Source: a virus (Duplodnaviria; Heunggongvirae; Uroviricota; Caudoviricetes). Taken from it: 46,799 nt of DNA. Below are positions 2,792-41,529 of this stretch, piece after piece (position 1 is the stretch's first letter; every line of letters starts with the position of its first letter). The stretch lies in the IMG/VR virus record IMGVR_UViG_2597490154_000003. One strand, 5' to 3'. A program made the position numbers and the translations under genes. The notes beneath the pieces were generated by a model. It was not told the origin of the DNA and ran no database searches. It saw only the letters and a list, made by a program, of their open reading frames with translations.

Positions 2792-5700
2792 TCAACTGAT
2801 ACCGGCTGTAGATTTCTTCATCACAACAACAAGAAGGTCGCTGATACTGGTCGTTGGCGTCCAGTTATTAGCACCATATGAAGAAACATTGAAAGTCAGG
2901 GTGACATGGCCGTGTCCGGCAGGCATATCAATGACTGATGAAAATACCCTGCTGACATCCGTCGCGGGTTGCTGAAAGATTTCCTGTCCGTTCTTCAGTA
3001 CCTGCAGCTTACAGGTTGAATACCAGTATGACTGTTGGTTGTTGCTGTTGAAGTTTTCATGCTTACCCCCACGAAACAGAACGGGGGGGACTACTATCTG
3101 ACGGTCAAAAGCCTGGTCATCGTACACAGTGACCGTTATTGTACCGCTGGCATAACTGCCATTTCTCGGAAAGGCTTTTCCCACCGTTTTGACAATATCA
3201 CCTTCAATCTGGTTAGCTGACAGTTTTCCCAGAATCCGACAGTTCTGATTAATCGTGACGTTGTTGAGCGTCCCGGAGTTCGCGTTCACGTTACCGCTGA
3301 TATCCGCATTTTTCGCAGAAAGTCGACCATCAGGTGTCAGTGAAAACGTTGGGGGATTGCCACCGCTGGTAATGGTGGGAGCCGTCAGATATTTCAGGAA
3401 CACTTCGTTCATGAATATCTGATCGCCCTGCCCAACAAACATCGGCTTTGTGTTGCCATTCGCAGGATTAATCATCGCAATCCTGTCCGCCGCCAGCAGC
3501 ACCTGACTCTGCATACCGTCAGGAGTATTCTCAACACCGGCACCAATACCCGCGATATAAAGGCGTCCGTCCTGCATCTGCTGCAGCTTCACAGCCCACA
3601 TGCTGTTCAGGTTATTATTTGTATCAACCTGAACCTTCTGTATCTGCTGGATCGCTGCACTCTGGTCTTCCAGTTTCTTATTGACGGTCTGCGTGATTTC
3701 ATTGCTGACACCCGTAATGGACGTCCTGATTTCAGCCAGGTCAGGCGCAAGCTGACCGTTATCAATCTGCGTCCACAACTCCTGAGCCAGATGGGTTTTC
3801 CCTATCTCTCCTTTGAAAAAATTCAGATAGCCGGATGCATCATCACTCGGCTGGCCAACAGCCTCCACAAATGCCGATTTGCCAACGGTGTTCACACTGC
3901 GGATGTAAAAATAATAATCATGGCCCGGTTTGATATTGATACTGGCGGCTATCCAGTACAGCGCCGTGCCAAGATAGCGTGCTGTGGTTTCAACCTGCCT
4001 GATATCCGCAATCCGCTTTTCCGAGAACCAGAACTCAAACTGTACCGTCGGATCATAAACCGCAAGATGCGGCGTGGCGGTTATCTGAAAATACCCCGGT
4101 GTCAGCTCAATCTGCGACGGCGCTGCCGGTGCGGCAATCCGGAACGATACCGATGCCGGATCGCCCTGCTGCCCCCACGCATTTACCGCCCGGACTGTCA
4201 GCCTGTAGTTCCCCAGCGCCAGTTGCCTGAAGCGGTATGTGGTTTCCGTCGTCCGGGCCGTGCTGACCAGCCGCTCACTGCCGTCATCCGCTGCCACGGT
4301 CAGGCGAAGCATAAAGCTCACCCCCTTCACCACCTTCGGCGTGTCCCAGCGCGCCAGCACCTGATATTCCCCGCTGTCTGCGGTGACTTCGGCAGTCAGG
4401 TGCTGCACCGCTGGCGGCGTGACACCATTCACCGTGCCGCTCTGGTCGCCGTCAAAGTGCGCCCCGTTATCCACGATGGCCTCTTTTTCCGGTACATGCT
4501 GCACGGCAGTGATGGCATACGTGCCGTCATCGTTCTCACGGATACTCACACAGCGGAACAGGCGCTGGCGCAACGTTGGCAACTTCAGCCCCCACACGCT
4601 GTATTCTGCAACGCCGTCAGGAACACGGCTCACTTTTACCTTCACGCCGTCGGTGACGGACTGGACCTCCACGCTGACCGGATTCCCCTGTCCGTCAGCC
4701 AGGCTTATCAGCGTGGTGCCGGAGGATGGCAGCGTGATTTCACGGTCGAGCGTCAGTGTCCGCGTCTGGTTGTTCACCGCCAGCACGCGCCCGCCGATGC
4801 TGATCCCCGCATAGTCATCATCACAGATTTCAATGACATCGCCCGGTACATGGCGAAGCCCTTCTGCACCCACGCTGAAGTCCACGGTCTGCGTTTCCAG
4901 CAGCTCCGTTTTAATCAGCCACAGCCCGGCGCGGTGTGCCTGCCCCCGGCTGGTACAGCCAAAGGCATCCATCTTCGTGACGTTACGACCGTAACGGGCA
5001 ATGGCCTGCGTGTCCTCCACAAGCTCTGTCGCCGTCTCCCAGCCGTTATCCGGGTCAATCCAGTTCACCTCAACGGCATTATGGCGGTCTTTCAGGGCGC
5101 TGAAGCTGTAGCGGAACGGCGCGCCATCATCCGGCATCACCACATTACTGCGGTTATAGGTCCACACCTTATCCGACGGTCGGTCCTGCACGAATGTCAG
5201 CGTCTGCCCGTTCCATACCGGCATACAGCGCATCGCCGAGCAAAAATCACTGAGCACATCCCACGCCTTGCGCTGTGTGGTCAGGTACGCATTACAGGTG
5301 ATGCGCGGCTCCGTGCCGCCAAAGCCGTCCGGCACTGACTGGTCGCAATTCTGGCCGATGACATACAGCGCCCATTTATCCACATCTGCCGCACCAAGAC
5401 GTTTCCCCATGCCGTAGCGCGGATGGGTCAGCATATCCCACAGACACCAGGCCATGTTGTTGCTGTATGCTGGCTTAAACGTTCCGTCCCAGATACCGCT
5501 GTATTGCCGCGTCTGCGGGTTATAGTTCGACGGCACCTGCAGAATGCGCCCGCGAAGATGATAATTACGGCTCACCTGCTGGCTGCCGAACTGCTCCGAG
5601 TCCACCTGTACGCCGACCAGTGCCGTGTTCGGGTAGCACTGTTTCACATCGATGATTTCGGTGTATGACGACCAGAGCGTTTTGTTCTGCAACTGGTCTG

Positions 5701-19172: not shown

Positions 19173-19345
19173 CGGGTTGTCCCCAGTACCGACTCCGCAT
19201 CATTGATCGCCCGGTTAAGCTCATCCAGAGAAGCCGCCGTATATTCAATTCTGCGACCATCTTTCTGGACAGACACCACCCGTTTACCGGTTAATAAATC
19301 AAGGCGCGCCTGACGCAGCGCCTGCAGTTCAGCGACTGTAACCAT
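19139..19345 (-). CDS. W: head-tail joining protein W
   Basis: 68 aa, same size and position as lambda W. Confidence 0.85.
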   Translation of the reverse strand: MVTVAELQALRQARLDLLTGKRVVSVQKDGRRIEYTAASLDELNRAINDAESVLGTTRCRRRPLGVRL

Positions 19346-21257
19346 TCACTCCTCCGGACAGCTTCGCTGCCAGTTCTTTAAGGGTTGGCCGGGTCGTCTC
19401 TTCTTCCCGGGATTTTGCCAGTACAGCCAGATCAAGCTGCCAGCGTTGCACGGACACACGTAATGCCGCGTAGGCATACACCAGGCAGTCCAGCGCTTCG
19501 TTACGCCGCTTTTTGTTATCCCACAGCAGACGCATCTTTCCTTTTTCCCACTTCTCCACAAGCTCTTCCGCGACCAGTTGCTGCGCCTCTGTCTGCGAAA
19601 AAATCTCCGGATCATCAGGAAAACGGATGGCATACGACGTGGCTTCATCCGCAGGCGTGGGCTCGGCTTTCATACGGGCATAGAGAATTTCTTTTGCGGT
19701 GTCCGTCCCCACTTCACACAGATAAACGCCCCGCTGATTGCGGGTTTTCGGCATGGTGATCACCGGCTTGCCATAGACAGACGCGCCTTTTACCGGCAGC
19801 ACCCGGAAAACACCGTGTTTTTTTGACCTCTGATAAACGATTTCGCCATCGATCCCCCCGATGTCCCAGCAGACACGGGAAATGGTCATTTCGGTTCCGT
19901 CTGCATGGCGGTATTTTTTGTTGATCGCCGCATCCACACGTAACAGCGTCTCTTCCTCATCGGGACGCCCCATAATGATGATTTTATCCACCAGAAAGGC
20001 TTCCTCTCCCGGAGCCCATCCCCAGACATACATCTCAAAACGGTTTCGCTGCGAGTCAATGCCCGCCGTCAGATAAACCACCCGGGCAGGCACCGCCGCC
20101 GTGTAACGCACAACCTTATCCATCAGCACCTGGTGATCGAGTTTTTCGCCCACAGCCTCTTCCCAGGTCTCGCCCAGCGTGGTGTTCACAAAGGTTTTCA
20201 GGCCGTTGGGATCTTTCAGTGCATCCAGCCAGTCATAGACAATCTGTACCCAGGTGGTGAACGGACTGTACGCCGTCCAGATATGGAAAGTGATGGAGCG
20301 CGGCGGCGGAATTTCATCACCCCGGGCGCTGAAAAACATCAGGCCGTCACGGGTCCACATGCCCGTGTTTTCACAGATCCACCGCCCGTTACTCTGGTCA
20401 AGCTCAGACTGATGGATCACACAGCCATGATGCTCACAAAGGTAGAAAACACTTTCTGGCTTATTCTTCTCCCACTTAAGACCGAAAGGCGAGGCATCAT
20501 CGCCAAATTTCAGATACTGCTCCTCCCCACAGTGCGGACAGGGCACATAAAAACGCATGAAGTGTGCCGACTCGTTAGCGGCTTTTTCGATCTGGCAGGA
20601 GCCTTTGATTTTAGGCGTCGAGCCGCGAATGGATTTTGGCCATACAGAGCCCTCAATACGTTTATCCCCCAGCAGGGTTGGCGAACCCTCTTTTTCAACA
20701 TCCGGTTCGAACGAGGAAAGCTCGTCATAACAGACCACATCCACGGATTTTTCACGGTAGTTTTTTGCTGCCGCACCACCCAGACACCAGAACCCCACAC
20801 CGGAGGAAAAACGCTTCAGGGTGAGCGTATTATCGCGGTGTTTTCTTCCGAACCATGGAGCCAGCTCCAGCAATGCAGGAACATCCCTTATCGTTGGCTC
20901 AACATGAGATTTCATAAAATCTTCAGCAGCTGAGTCCGTGGGCTGAAAAAGAAGGCTGTTGCGTGATTTATGCTCAATAAAATAAGCCTCCACTCCCAGC
21001 AACATCTTTGTATAACCAACACGGGCAGATTTAATCAGGTTAACCGTGCGAATCAGATCGTTGCCCATACAGTTCATGATGCCAACCTGAAACGGCAGTG
21101 TTTCCCATCGCCCCGGGGTATAAGACGACTCTTTAGGAAGGTAATAATGTTTATTGGCCCACTGAACTGTCGTCAGTGGAACAGGAATAATGAGAGATAA
21201 AAGCCCTGTAGCTATCGCACCGGCTGCATTAGCTGCCTTCTGCGCGTCTGAAATCAT
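19329..21257 (-). CDS. A: terminase large subunit A
   Basis: track ORF to 21299; ATG at 21257 with GGTGGA RBS gives lambda-like overlap with Nu1; [15 protein letters not shown] and many conserved blocks match lambda gpA. Confidence 0.9.
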
Positions 21258-21777
21258 CGATCCACCCGCCCACGTTTTCACCGGCCTTAGCTGCAACATT
21301 GGAGGCTTTCGCGATTTCAGTTTTCACCACATCAAGGTGTGATGGTGAAATGTCCGGATATTTACGCTGTAATGTCAACGGCACACGCACAAGTATCCCC
21401 GAAATCTCCTGTGCCACACGTTGCAGAATGAAGGTAAACAGTTCAGTTTCCAGCACTACTCCGTCTTCACGGGCATTTTTCAGTTCCTGCGCATCTGCCT
21501 GCGCTTTTGTGAGCCGGTAGCGTTCATAGTCAATGGTGCCGGGTTGTAAATCTGACTCCGCTGCCGCACGCAAATCGTCCAGTTCTTTGCGGAGCTTTTC
21601 GTTTTCGATATCAGTTTCCCTCTGCGCATACCACTGAATTGCCATGGCAGTATCAAATACAGATTCAATGCCCTTACTACCTTTGGAGGCGCAAGGGAGT
21701 CCCTGAGACTGCCAGCGTTCAATCGTCCGCGGGTCCACGTTGAAAATTTCGGCAAGCCTCTTTTTATTAACCTTCAT
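21229..21777 (-). CDS. nu1: terminase small subunit Nu1
   Basis: 182 aa beginning [23 protein letters not shown], similar to lambda Nu1 (MEVNKKQLADIFG...). Confidence 0.9.
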
Positions 21778-21953: not shown

Positions 21954-21965
21954 AGGTCGCCGCCC
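21954..21965. other. cos: cosN cohesive-end site (12-nt)
   Basis: plus strand aggtcgccgccc is the reverse complement of the lambda cohesive end GGGCGGCGACCT; flanking sequence (GGGCGGCGACCTCGCGG, TTTATGAAAATTTT) matches the lambda left end; lies about 180 bp upstream of Nu1. Confidence 0.8.
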
Positions 21966-22728: not shown

Positions 22729-23055
22729 TCAAGGACGTGACGGCGTAAAGATAAATTGTCTCTTCACTCCCTGACAGGGGCGATTCTTTTCAAATCGCCA
22801 TTTCGCCATGGCCTTCACCACTTCATCACGAAACAAATTATGAGGCTCTGAGCGGAGAAAAACGATCCGTGTCACAGTCCCATCAGCACCAATATCGAAC
22901 TTAACCTCAACCAGCCCCTTGATATAATTTGCTGCAGCATATTCCGGATATCGTGGATACACCGTCACTAATTGCCGGGGCTCATCAGCTTTTTGCTGCG
23001 AACATCCCACTGCCAGGACAGATAACAGAAAAAGTAGTAAAAGGCGTCTTTTCAT
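22729..23055 (-). CDS. lipoprotein with TonB C-terminal-like domain
   Basis: internal ATG of track ORF (MKRRLLLLFLLSVLAVGCSQ lipobox); C-terminal region aligns by eye to E. coli TonB C-terminal domain (YP..A.A..I.G.V.VKFD...DG.V ... F..EV..AM..WR.E). Confidence 0.6.
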   Translation of the reverse strand: MKRRLLLLFLLSVLAVGCSQQKADEPRQLVTVYPRYPEYAAANYIKGLVEVKFDIGADGTVTRIVFLRSEPHNLFRDEVVKAMAKWRFEKNRPCQGVKRQFIFTPSRP

Positions 23056-23535
23056 TTTTATTCCTACGGGTCTTATTCTGACAATATATCCTGTGTTCCA
23101 GACTGCCACATCACCACATCCTGTGCCATTATCTGACTCACATTACATACATCGCATCGGGATACAGTAGTAGCACTTTCTGTAATACAGCTTCCTGTTT
23201 CTTCCACCATCGCACCGGGATAAACCCGCGAATCATTAACGCGGTAAAAACCCGGTGTGCATCGTTTTTAATTATTCCCGCACACTCACGCAGAAGGAAT
23301 TCCCCGTCGGGCTACGGTCATGGTTAATGCGGGAATACGGCGACGATACAGCGCAGCTAAAAGGGTAATGGACGGATAGACCGGTTTATTTCATTCCACA
23401 GGATTCTGAGTGTCCCCAACTTCCTCCAATAGTCTGAGCCCACCTGTGTAGTTTTAATTTTCATCAATCCATTTAACTATCGTTTAATTGTTGTCACATA
23501 GGATTCTGCCGTTTTTAACAATGCAGGATAATAAG

Positions 23536-23829
23536 ATGAAAAAAATGTTGTTTTCTGCCGCTCTGGCAATGCTTATTACAGGATGTGCTCAACAGACGTT
23601 TACTGTTGGAAACAAACCTACAGCAGTAACACCAAAGGAAACCATCACCCATCATTTCTTCGTTTCGGGAATTGGGCAGAAGAAAACTGTCGATGCAGCA
23701 AAAATTTGTGGTGGTGCAGAAAATGTTGTTAAAACAGAAACCCAGCAAACATTCGTAAATGGATTGCTCGGTTTTATTACTTTAGGCATTTATACTCCGC
23801 TGGAAGCGCGTGTGTATTGCTCACAATAA
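23536..23829 (+). CDS. bor: Bor lipoprotein (serum resistance)
   Basis: ATG at 23536; 97 aa MKKMLFSAALAMLITGCAQQTFTV... nearly identical to remembered lambda Bor; opposite strand to lysis genes as in lambda. Confidence 0.9.
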   Translation: MKKMLFSAALAMLITGCAQQTFTVGNKPTAVTPKETITHHFFVSGIGQKKTVDAAKICGGAENVVKTETQQTFVNGLLGFITLGIYTPLEARVYCSQ

Positions 23830-23860: not shown

Positions 23861-24322
23861 CTATCTGCACTGCTCATTAATATACTTCTGGGTTCCTTCC
23901 AGTTGTTTTTGCATAGTGATCAGCCTCTCTCTGAGGGTGAAATAATCCCGTTCAGCGGTGTCTGCCAGTCGGGGGGAGGCTGCATTATCCACGCCGGAGG
24001 CGGTGGTGGCTTCACGCACTGACTGACAGACTGCTTTGATGTGCAACCGACGACGACCAGCGGCAACATCATCACGCAGAGCATCATTTTCAGCTTTCGC
24101 ATCAGCTAACTCCTTCGTGTATTTTGCATCGAGCGCAGCAACATCACGCTGACGCATCTGTATGTCAGTAATTGCCGCGTTCGCCAGCGTCAGTTCTCTG
24201 GCATTTTTGTCGCGCTGGGCTTTGTAGGTAATGGCGTTATCACGGTAATGATTAACAGCCCATGACAGGCAGACGATGATGCAGATAACCAGAGCGGAGA
24301 TAATCGCGGTTACTCTGTTCAT
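23861..24322 (-). CDS. Rz: spanin inner-membrane subunit Rz
   Basis: track ORF 23861-24334; from [44 protein letters not shown] matches lambda Rz. Confidence 0.85.
23920..24102 (-). CDS. Rz1: spanin outer-membrane lipoprotein Rz1 (embedded in Rz, +1 frame)
   Basis: 60 aa with lipobox VVGC and proline-rich [15 protein letters not shown], as lambda Rz1; fully nested within Rz. Confidence 0.8.
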
Positions 24323-24816
24323 TGCTGACCCCACAAACAGATTTCACGCTCAATCTCACGACGAGTCATGAGACCTTTCCATTGCTTACCGCCAGCATAT
24401 GTCCAGCGACGTAGCTGATCACATGCGCCTTTGATATCGCCCTGGTTTATTTTGCGAAGAAGCGTCGATGTTCTGAAATTGCCAGCACCCACGTTGTAAA
24501 CGAATGAGTAAAGAGCGCCGCGCATTGTTTCCGGTATATCGACTTTGATGTACGGGTTAATTTGTCTGGCGACCGTGGCAAGGTCTTTATTCAGGAGGGC
24601 TTTGCATTCTGCTTTGGTATACGTTTTACCGAGCATGATGTCTTTTCCTGTATGCCCGTGACATACAGTCCATACACCAACAATATCTTTGTATGGTATG
24701 TAGCTGACACCTTCCAGACCATCGTTACCACTTGGGCCAGTGATTAACACTGATGCTATAGCAATTGCTCCGCCACCAATAGCAGCAGCAACGGCTTTTC
24801 GTAATGATGGAGGCAT
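24319..24816 (-). CDS. R: SAR endolysin (phage 21 R-type lysozyme)
   Basis: 165 aa; N-terminal Gly/Ala-rich weakly hydrophobic signal-anchor-release segment ([21 protein letters not shown]) followed by lysozyme-like domain; resembles remembered phage 21 R. Confidence 0.85.
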
Positions 24817-25193: not shown

Positions 25194-25619
25194 AAGCTGT
25201 GTGACGAAGTAACCACTCTTAACAGCATAACCAATTTTTTACGTACGTAAACTACTAAATGATATTTGTGAGAATGCCACCGAGTGTTCAAAACACCACC
25301 ACAAATGCATAAGAAAACTTCAACAAATAACCAGTTAATAATTTCCGATGTTATTTTTAGTTTGTTTAAATTAAGCTAAAGAATTATAGAGCACTTATAA
25401 ATAAGTGCCATTAATATAAATTAGCTAATAGATTTATTTTTGTTCAGACAAGAGCCATGAATAGGATTAGATAGAAAAGGTTCAGATAAAAATAGAGATC
25501 TACTTCACAAATTAAATGAGAAACTAAAACTTACATCTTGAAATAATCACATTGATTAGATGAATATTTATCGCGCAGTGACATCATTTTTTAATAAAAG
25601 TTCAAAAAAAGGGCGTACA

Positions 25620-26702
25620 ATGAAAAAATTAACAGTGGCAATTTCTGCTGTAGCTGCATCAGTACTGATGGCGATGTCTGCTCAGGCAGCTGAAATTTAT
25701 AATAAAGACAGTAACAAGCTGGATCTATACGGGAAAGTTAATGCCAAGCACTACTTCTCCTCTAATGATGCAGATGATGGTGATACTACTTATGCCCGTC
25801 TTGGCTTCAAAGGTGAAACCCAAATCAACGATCAACTGACTGGTTTCGGTCAGTGGGAATATGAATTCAAAGGCAACCGTGCTGAATCTCAAGGTTCTTC
25901 CAAAGACAAAACCCGTCTTGCATTTGCAGGCCTGAAATTTGGTGATTACGGCTCAATCGATTACGGCCGTAACTACGGTGTAGCATACGACATCGGTGCG
26001 TGGACTGACGTTCTGCCAGAATTCGGTGGTGATACCTGGACCCAAACAGATGTGTTCATGACTGGTCGCACTACTGGTGTTGCAACTTATCGTAACAACG
26101 ACTTCTTTGGTCTGGTCGATGGCCTGAACTTTGCTGCTCAGTATCAGGGTAAAAATGACCGCACTGACGTAACTGAAGCCAATGGTGATGGTTTCGGTTT
26201 CTCCACTACTTATGAGTATGAAGGATTCGGCGTGGGTGCAACCTATGCTAAATCAGATCGCACTGACGGTCAGGTCGCCTATGGTAAGAGCAAATTCAAT
26301 GCCTCCGGCAAAAATGCGGAAGTATGGGCTGCAGGCCTGAAATATGATGCGAACAATATCTATCTGGCTACCACATATTCTGAAACTCAGAATATGACCG
26401 TTTTTGGTAATAACCATATTGCAAACAAAGCACAAAACTTTGAAGCAGTAGCACAATATCAGTTTGACTTCGGTCTGCGTCCATCTGTTGCTTACCTTCA
26501 GTCAAAAGGTAAAGACCTTGGTGTTCATGGTGACCGAGACTTAGTCAAGTATGTCGATGTCGGTGCTACTTACTACTTTAATAAAAACATGTCCACTTTT
26601 GTTGATTACAAAATCAACTTAATTGACGATAGTAAGTTTACCAAAACAGCTGGTATTGATACCGACGACATCGTCGCTGTAGGTCTGGTTTATCAGTTCT
26701 AA
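25620..26702 (+). CDS. nmpC: outer membrane porin, NmpC/OmpC family (intact)
   Basis: ATG at 25620 (track ORF 25560); signal peptide [40 protein letters not shown]-terminal VGLVYQF; matches remembered NmpC-type porin; opposite strand to flanking late genes. Confidence 0.85.
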
Positions 26703-35033: not shown

Positions 35034-35615
35034 TTACTTGTTTTTGCCATGCTTATCCTGAGCGATAAGTTCATCCATAAGGCTGTCTGCCTTCCCGGCA
35101 AACCTAATGTAGCACTCATGTCTATAGCTTTCAGGGATAACGAAACGGTCGGTATCAGGATATCCAACAGCAGGAGGCCTTCGAACGAGGAGTCCTTTTT
35201 TGAGCAATGAAATTGATTCATGAGCGCCCTTTTCCGTTTGTAGCTGGTTATTAGCGGCTACAGCGAATGCCAAATACGCTCTTTCTCCAAGAGTTAACGA
35301 ATCAAACAAATCTTGCACATATTTTTCTTCTTTAGATTTGCGCTTCTGAGCAGCGAATACCTCAATTCTTTCAGTCACAGCGTGATAAGCGGAATTAACA
35401 ACGCCGTTAAGCACATAGCTAACGCAAAACAACAGGATGTAATACATCCAGTAATGAGGAAGGATTTCTGGACTATGCAGGTTTATCCATTCTTTTACGC
35501 TTACCGGCATAACAATAATCAATATGATCAGGATGATTAGCATATGAATCAACTGTTTAAGTGTCATTCCTTGCAGGAAAAAATGCATTAGTTCCTGCCA
35601 CCATGAGTTGTTCAT
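35034..35615 (-). CDS. sieB: superinfection exclusion protein SieB-like
   Basis: track ORF runs into IS911; ATG at 35615 gives 193 aa MNNSWWQELMHFFLQGMTLKQLIHMLIILIILIIVMPVSVKEWINL... with N-terminal TM segment, matching remembered lambda SieB. Confidence 0.7.
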   Translation of the reverse strand: MNNSWWQELMHFFLQGMTLKQLIHMLIILIILIIVMPVSVKEWINLHSPEILPHYWMYYILLFCVSYVLNGVVNSAYHAVTERIEVFAAQKRKSKEEKYVQDLFDSLTLGERAYLAFAVAANNQLQTEKGAHESISLLKKGLLVRRPPAVGYPDTDRFVIPESYRHECYIRFAGKADSLMDELIAQDKHGKNK

Positions 35616-35721
35616 CGGCGTTTCTCTTTTGCTCTCTGTAGGGGTGAATTGAAGTGGTTTACTGAATTTGGCCACCTGAACAGAGGTGATATGCTCACCT
35701 CAGAACAACACAGGTGCCATA

Positions 35722-36872
<1,151 letters not shown>

Positions 36873-40381: not shown

Positions 40382-41529
<1,148 letters not shown>

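Follow-up and report, generated by a model that had tools for sequence, protein, structure and literature searches.

The window analysed here is a 46,799-nucleotide stretch of DNA from a virus of the Caudoviricetes (IMG/VR record IMGVR_UViG_2597490154_000003). Between the lysis genes and the cohesive-end site of this prophage lies a small gene for a protein composed of a lipoprotein signal and a single TonB C-terminal domain (TonB_C), which is referred to below as the TonB_C lipoprotein (Table 1). The N-terminus of the protein reads MKRRLLLLFLLSVLAVGC, followed by SQQKADEP after Cys18. A KRR n-region and a hydrophobic core (in order MKRR, LLLLFLLSVL and AVGC) lead to the lipobox LAVGC, which ends in Cys18, and Ser19 occupies the +2 position. 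The signal peptidase II lipobox pattern [LVI][ASTVI][GAS]C was thus found, with a positively charged n-region and then a hydrophobic h-region ahead of it; the mature protein is predicted to begin with Cys18 and to be acylated there. Only 7 residues link Cys18 to the TonB_C domain.

The original prediction had described a lipoprotein signal with an LAVGC lipobox and, following it, a region that aligned by eye with E. coli TonB's C-terminal domain. The signal was borne out when Cys18 was read from the sequence, and the aligned positions (YP..A, VKFD..DG.V and F..EV..AM..WR.E) all match in the phmmer alignment. Profile and fold searches, by which the prediction could be checked, both returned TonB_C, at a likeness well above chance. 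Pfam TonB_C (PF03544) matched with an E value of 7.3e-13 and 49.2 bits against a gathering cut-off of 24.6, and was the sole Pfam match of the protein; TIGR01352 (tonB_Cterm) matched with 47.4 bits against a cut-off of 27.1. When PDB sequences were searched by phmmer, chains of the E. coli TonB C-terminal domain (1u07, 2gsk and 2grx) were retrieved at E ~1e-14, and residues 24-103 of the lipoprotein aligned without gaps to TonB 151-230. Residues of the fold core are kept, namely Y36-P37, F53, G59, F75, W86 and F103, corresponding to TonB Y163-P164, F180, G186, F202, W213 and F230 (residue i of the query being TonB i+127), while F88 replaces TonB Y215.

An AlphaFold2 model built with 27 family sequences had a mean pLDDT (predicted local distance difference test) of 86.7, and the 10-residue blocks across residues 31-100 scored 95-98. 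The model consists of a helix (38-42), two strands (47-55 and 61-70), a second helix (76-83) and a last strand (94-103). Its top PDB match was BtuB-bound TonB, 2gsk_B, with a target template modelling score of 0.92, a root-mean-square deviation (rmsd) of 1.0 Å and 40% identity. It also superposed on FhuA-bound TonB (2grx_C, rmsd 0.9 Å) and on free TonB (1u07). Every significant structural match was a TonB C-terminal domain, and that of FusB from Pectobacterium (7zc8, 9hi3) was among the close ones. A search of the viral structures in BFVD with the same model gave zero significant matches; among the viral proteins catalogued so far the TonB_C fold is therefore rare.

Phage 21 encodes a protein of 100% identity, gp73 (UMO75484.1; OL657228), which is annotated as 'TonB C-terminal domain protein', and proteins of phages ev017, Perceval and PhiR47_2 are identical too. 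The window matches the phage 21-like prophage of E. coli ATCC 25922, where the gene product is WP_000830178.1, 'TonB family protein'. Of 5426 complete E. coli genomes, 1221 had the 21-type locus, taken at a query coverage of at least 80%. Another allele, whose protein shows 72% identity and which Shiga toxin (Stx) and O103-type phages carry, was present in 414 further genomes of the same set, so that one or the other allele occurs in ~30% of complete E. coli genomes. Carriers include enterohaemorrhagic E. coli O157, O103 and O111, the strain Nissle 1917, the type strain and ATCC 25922. The exact protein sequence occurs on at least 1000 contigs, under generic names throughout. Some records label the gene 'partial tonB-like membrane protein' or 'TonB fragment', and one genome paper counts a phage-borne tonB among iron-transport genes. 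Being already annotated, the gene is not new as an open reading frame (ORF); as a mechanism, uptake blocking through such a fold would plausibly be new.

Comparison of the two E. coli alleles gave a ratio of nonsynonymous to synonymous divergence (dN/dS) of 0.13 at a dS of 1.37, which is saturated, and this ratio indicates clear purifying selection on the gene. The ORF was of full length in all 80 related viral loci. In each of these loci the gene sits between Rz and a small terminase or HNH gene, in the same orientation as the late genes. The original prediction had located the gene beside bor and cos, in the moron region that separates the lysis genes from cos, and the map of the window bore out both the adjacency and the slot. 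The bor gene accompanied it in 46 of the 80 loci only, and bor and the TonB_C gene are therefore independent cassettes. Alignment of phage Lys8385Vzw with Stx2 phage 1717 delimited a cassette of 653 bp (locus positions 3852-4504), comprising ~150 bp upstream, the coding sequence and ~175 bp downstream. Phage 1717 has 246 bp of unrelated sequence in its place and is otherwise syntenic, and lambda is without a TonB_C gene at the same place. The gene thus shows the presence/absence polymorphism in otherwise syntenic phages by which a moron is recognised.

The cassette-specific upstream region is common to the Stx-type allele and absent from phage 1717. Within it lie an extended -10-like motif, which reads TGT(C/T)AGAAT across alleles, and a GATAAT that is kept in both alleles; the two are candidates only for a promoter. 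A relaxed promoter scan upstream of the gene reached 8 of 12 matches at best. In the 5' region Rfam returned nothing below an E value of 0.5, and a folding z-score of -0.9 gave no significant RNA structure. Upstream of the Stx-type allele there is one Fur-box match at 13/19, not significant alone, which overlaps a palindrome. This perfect 8-bp palindrome (AGAATAAG-A-CTTATTCT; L004:3960-3990) also overlaps the -10-like TAGAAT 5' of the gene in the Stx-type cassette, and the 21-type allele of the window is without it because of a 13-nt deletion. Downstream, the coding sequence is followed by a hairpin that lies just 5' of the ribosome-binding site belonging to phage 21 gp74, the next small ORF; as no T-run follows, the hairpin is not a canonical terminator. 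From the orientation of the gene, late transcription by read-through from pR' is expected, and expression in the lysogen is possible.

Two further elements upstream of the gene were considered and rejected. Between bor and the TonB_C cassette lies a block of ~109 nt that shows 83-99% conservation in 432 phage records, among them lambda (where it lies beside bor), 933W, VT2-Sakai and many Stx phages, independently of the presence of bor or the TonB_C gene. Since lambda and 933W carry the block without the gene, it is general lambdoid sequence and not a cassette-specific regulatory region; a sequence for a junction or for recombination, or a piece of the region controlling bor, are possible identities. 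The 45-aa upstream ORF annotated as phage 21 gp72 is conserved over its first ~10 codons only, including the start region GGTGCGATGGTGGAAGAAAC, and in the Stx-type cassette only 14 aa of it are left. It is therefore probably not a real protein gene.

The lysis cassette of the window is complete without counting the TonB_C lipoprotein. The same prophage also holds other envelope and exclusion accessory genes, namely bor/iss, an OmpC/NmpC-like porin and a SieB homologue. In the early region, two opposed ORFs of the rve type (transposase-type integrase core; 272-273 aa) flank RecT, and the prophage may be rearranged or defective.

Table 1. Features of the TonB_C lipoprotein gene and its surroundings in the window, and loci of the related Serratia module
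Feature	Coordinates	Strand	Details
TonB_C lipoprotein coding sequence	23055..22729	minus	ATG 23055..23053, stop 22731..22729; 108 aa
Ribosome-binding site AGGA	23065..23062	minus	6 nt 5' of ATG; also in phage 21 annotation
Lipoprotein signal peptide, residues 1-18 (MKRRLLLLFLLSVLAVGC)	23002..23055	minus	read from sequence
TonB C-terminal domain, residues 26-108 (E. coli TonB 153-235)	22732..22980	minus	profiles, phmmer, AlphaFold2 model
Cassette-specific upstream region, ~136 bp	23056..23191	minus	common to Stx-type allele; absent from phage 1717
Extended -10-like motif TGTCAGAAT (candidate)	23083..23075	minus	TGT(C/T)AGAAT across alleles; last base ~20 nt before ATG
GATAAT (candidate)	23133..23128	minus	~75 nt before ATG; kept in both alleles
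Hairpin after stop codon	22701..22727	minus	perfect 8-bp stem GCTTCCAG / CTGGAAGC, 11-nt loop; begins 2 nt past stop; no T-run
Phage 21 gp72 ORF	23210..23073	minus	45 aa; probably not a protein gene
Lambdoid block, ~109 nt	23355..23247	minus	between bor and TonB_C cassette
cosN cohesive-end sequence GGGCGGCGACCT	21954..21965	minus	~765 bp 3' of TonB_C gene
Terminase genes beyond cosN	Nu1 21777..21229; A 21299..19329		
bor/iss lipoprotein gene	23536..23829	plus	divergent from TonB_C gene, 480 bp distant
Rz i-spanin	23861..24334	minus	embedded Rz1 o-spanin at 24102..23920
OmpC/NmpC-like porin	25560..26702	plus	between Q and holin
SieB homologue	35034..35675	minus	
rve ORF	36051..36872	plus	early region
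rve ORF	40382..41200	minus	early region
Serratia three-gene module	L010:6001-8510; L014:5001-7447; L096:4986-7502; L097; L111:4001-6498		contexts: S. ureilytica chromosome; plasmid-like contig; S. grimesii; S. bockelmannii; conjugative S. marcescens plasmid

An exhaustive HMMER search revealed many proteins of 105-130 aa, at 30-45% identity, in each of which one TonB_C domain follows a signal peptide or a lipobox. Some of their genes are chromosomal and lie outside phages, in Erwinia and other organisms. Lipoboxes are kept in relatives (LVMGC, LLGC, LMGC, LSAC), where the +2 residue is Ser, Thr or Ala; in phage-borne relatives they persist, without Asp at +2, down to 41% identity. A Klebsiella prophage encodes a homologue of 41% identity with the lipobox LLGC before Ser, and a Rahnella prophage encodes one that also has a lipobox; both lie, like the gene of the window, in the interval from the lysis to the terminase genes. 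The standalone proteins share a family-specific motif, YPxYA. A subset of them (P0184, P0185, P0188, P0085 and P0120) ends in NSVYGNGVPFR or GVPFR, and P0041 and P0071 have comparable C-terminal ends, LLPYR and LLPSRK. The search also yielded longer proteins, of 480-1300 aa, in which 4-6 TonB_C stretches stand in tandem (P0036, P0043 and similar ones).

In Serratia, a gene for a Sec-exported TonB_C protein of ~119 aa is the immediate upstream neighbour, in the same orientation, of a colicin E1-type immunity gene, and these two genes are convergent with that of a pore-forming colicin of 554-575 aa. The three-gene module was found in five flanking contexts, and its colicins are 73-76% identical. 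For a gene transcribed together with an immunity gene, another protective function is the simplest reading, and the linkage would fit an import-blocking role of exported TonB_C domains. Near its N-terminus the colicin carries a TonB-box-like motif, DSMTVTG, exactly at the position of the TolB box of colicin A, as well as a homologue of the colicin A TolA-binding domain. The notion of a pure group B colicin is weakened by this homology of the N-terminal domain. In S. grimesii, a second standalone TonB_C gene with the lipobox LTAC (L096:4220-4561) lies immediately 5' of the colicin-linked one.

The most coherent functional account that we infer from these data is that the TonB_C lipoprotein acts as a lipid-anchored, non-energised mimic of TonB which would competitively block TonB-dependent uptake. 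This reading is tentative, and we put its probability at roughly 0.4. It agrees with the original prediction, which had proposed a periplasm-facing TonB-C decoy that gives Cor-like exclusion or prevents colicin and phage uptake; the structural half of that proposal is fully supported, and the functional half is plausible. Under the Lol +2 rule of E. coli, a lipoprotein without Asp at +2 is sorted to the outer membrane, and Ser19 at this position therefore predicts outer-membrane sorting of the TonB_C lipoprotein. The domain would then lie on the periplasmic face of the outer membrane, ~7 residues from its lipid anchor, and the short linker and the anchor would together hold it where the TonB boxes of transporters emerge. 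TonB binds TonB boxes through strand addition to its strand beta3. Similarly, TonB-box strands would pair by beta-strand addition with the beta3 edge of the lipoprotein, which is intact (residues 94-103). Such strands could be supplied by the TonB boxes of TonB-dependent transporters, by the N-terminal ends of group B colicins on their way in, or by both. The real TonB would thereby be kept from energising import, and the lysogen or infected cell would resist TonB-dependent phages (T1, phi80, HK022 and N15 types), colicins and microcins. Such a decoy would follow a logic like that of Cor and Llp through a different fold, one derived from the host, and might not depend on any single receptor; the TonB_C lipoprotein would plausibly represent a new fold class of uptake-blocking prophage lipoprotein. 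The fold, the predicted topology, the linkage of TonB_C and immunity genes in Serratia and the inhibition of transport reported by Howard et al. (2001) all support a decoy. The missing energy-coupling part, the conserved lipoboxes, the purifying selection and the cassette's constant place in the Rz-to-terminase gap, beside other accessory genes that modify the envelope (bor, the porin and SieB), also speak for it. A wider claim, which is possible but more doubtful, is that exported standalone TonB_C domains form a widespread 'import-jamming' immunity class, found in prophages of E. coli, Klebsiella and Rahnella and in Serratia colicin modules, whose members would capture TonB boxes at the outer membrane or in the periplasm against phages and bacteriocins.

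Several points weigh against uptake blocking by a TonB decoy. TonB residues Q160, R158, R166 and R204 correspond to Y33, T31, Y39 and D77 in the lipoprotein, and the TonB side chains, as they appear in the 2GSK and 2GRX complexes, are ones that we take to be receptor contacts. Soluble TonB fragments of about this minimal size are regarded as poor inhibitors. A general block of TonB would be costly for the iron uptake of the host, yet the gene is carried by ~30% of E. coli genomes. In every case the gene shares the orientation of the late operon, so that its product may be made only late in lytic growth; a consensus scan for sigma-70 promoters and terminators gave no site upstream of the gene on its strand, and a Fur-box scan at a threshold of at least 12/19 gave no match upstream of the allele in the window. 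The J tail tip is identical between the prophage and phage 21, which speaks neither for nor against a role in self-exclusion. The TolA-binding domain of colicin A type makes the import route of the Serratia colicin ambiguous, and full-text literature searches did not find a functional or expression study of the TonB_C lipoprotein. Because of the changed side chains, the minimal size and the iron cost, a narrower ligand trap and a late-lytic role both stay alive.

A ligand trap would mean that the domain has acquired a new partner, and captures the TonB box of one particular incoming protein, be it a colicin, a microcin or a protein from a phage, or else another periplasmic ligand, leaving TonB-dependent nutrient uptake unaffected. 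We consider this unlikely, though it deserves to be kept in view. It would explain why the gene is tolerated in so many E. coli genomes, and it agrees with the side chains that differ from TonB at the presumed receptor contacts, with the family's own YPxYA motif and with the Serratia relatives that travel together with a specific colicin and immunity pair. FusB's C-terminal domain, a close structural match of the model, binds its substrate protein directly; FusB is a TonB homologue that binds ferredoxin, and it shows that TonB_C domains can evolve new binding partners. However, the neighbourhood of the gene in the E. coli prophage encodes no candidate ligand, and since strand addition by TonB_C is largely independent of sequence, some cross-binding to the TonB boxes of transporters would be expected. 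It is rather unlikely, and a little more so, that the same binding serves a purely late-lytic role, in which the protein, made from the Q-antiterminated late transcript, silences the TonB-dependent receptors of the dying cell, as T5 Llp does with FhuA, and so stops late superinfection or the loss of progeny on debris. The constant position of the gene in prophages of E. coli, Klebsiella and Rahnella, downstream of the lysis genes and in their orientation, would be in keeping with such timing, as would the scans, in which neither a strong promoter for the gene itself nor a terminator emerged. The conserved extended -10-like motif inside the cassette-specific upstream region argues otherwise, and lambda lom and HK97 gp15 are likewise co-oriented with late genes and yet expressed in lysogens. 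Protection of progeny would moreover require that the phage, whose J tail tip is identical to that of phage 21, use a TonB-dependent receptor.

PHROG 1267, labelled 'Rz-like spanin', matches the protein at E 5e-43, and a lipoprotein of outer-membrane type encoded just after the lysis genes could suggest a spanin-like protein or one that assists lysis. A full Rz/Rz1 pair is already present in the window, however, and related phages are syntenic without the TonB_C gene. The protein is a globular TonB_C domain in place of a short proline-rich o-spanin, and the model has no C-terminal transmembrane helix such as a unimolecular spanin would have. The spanin label was therefore rejected, and a lysis function is very improbable. 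PHROG 1267 is essentially the TonB_C lipoprotein family, and its label is probably an error or transfer of annotation. We give equally little credence to a captured tonB fragment without function, or to an extra tonB that aids iron uptake, which is what the 'partial tonB-like membrane protein' and 'TonB fragment' labels and the listing of a phage-borne tonB under iron transport would imply. A functionless fragment is at odds with the dN/dS of 0.13 at saturated synonymous divergence, with the ORF intact in every viral locus compared, and with a signal peptide and lipobox that were acquired and kept. A helper is at odds with the missing membrane anchor and ExbBD coupling, without which the protein cannot energise transport.

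If the TonB_C lipoprotein is indeed a TonB decoy, exclusion by these prophages would be aimed at the shared energy coupling and not at one receptor, and many clinical and probiotic strains would be altered in how they respond to TonB-dependent phages, colicins and microcins and to siderophore-conjugated antibiotics, their sensitivity being changed. Dominant-negative TonB fragments, an old laboratory observation, would gain biological relevance, and the Serratia link would suggest an unrecognised uptake-level part of colicin immunity. Should the import-jamming class be real, it would amount to a second, uptake-level layer of colicin immunity together with a broad, receptor-independent superinfection exclusion. 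The gene is common in E. coli, is carried by the classic phage 21, and is misannotated, its present labels ('TonB family protein', 'iron transport', 'Rz-like spanin') being generic or misleading.

Comparison with E. coli TonB (P02929, residues ~150-239) reveals the same Pfam domain and fold, with 38-40% identity and an rmsd of 0.9-1.5 Å. TonB, however, has an N-terminal transmembrane helix, coupling to ExbB/ExbD and a proline-rich spacer, none of which the TonB_C lipoprotein possesses; unlike TonB it carries a cleavable lipoprotein signal, and it ends 5 residues past beta3. Since membrane anchor, ExbB/ExbD coupling and spacer are all missing, the TonB_C lipoprotein cannot energise transport. 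The profiles of full-length TonB equivalogs (NCBIfam, PRK10819) missed all cut-offs, the best reaching 69 bits against 315 and covering profile positions ~150-240. FusB is a full-length, energised, inner-membrane TonB-like protein, and the TonB_C lipoprotein is none of these. The other standalone TonB_C proteins of Enterobacterales have the same architecture, and the Klebsiella and Rahnella prophage members share the slot as well, whereas the colicin-linked members from Serratia have a Sec signal instead of a lipobox and a conserved GNGVPFR tail. No study of the function of any of these proteins was found.

Among experimental systems, a close likeness is to the exported periplasmic TonB fragments of Howard, Herrmann, Stratilo and Braun (2001, J Bacteriol 183:5885), which are reported to inhibit FhuA and FecA transport. 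These fragments are periplasmic, dominant-negative and without a membrane anchor, and resemble the TonB_C lipoprotein in lacking that anchor. The constructs are engineered, soluble and mostly longer (including residues upstream of 150), whereas the TonB_C lipoprotein is natural, lipid-anchored and a minimal domain. Among phage proteins, Cor (phi80, N15, HK022, mEp167) and Llp of T5 block phage entry at the periplasmic face of a TonB-dependent transporter; they share one fold of their own, are specific for FhuA and act allosterically via its plug. PADLOC defence models gave zero matches, and membership of the TonB_C lipoprotein in the Cor/Llp family was rejected, as its Pfam and structural matches are all TonB_C and the Cor/Llp fold is distinct. 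Thus, the proposed exclusion logic would be the same as that of Cor and Llp on an unrelated fold, and a TonB_C decoy, by targeting TonB boxes, could be the broader of the two.

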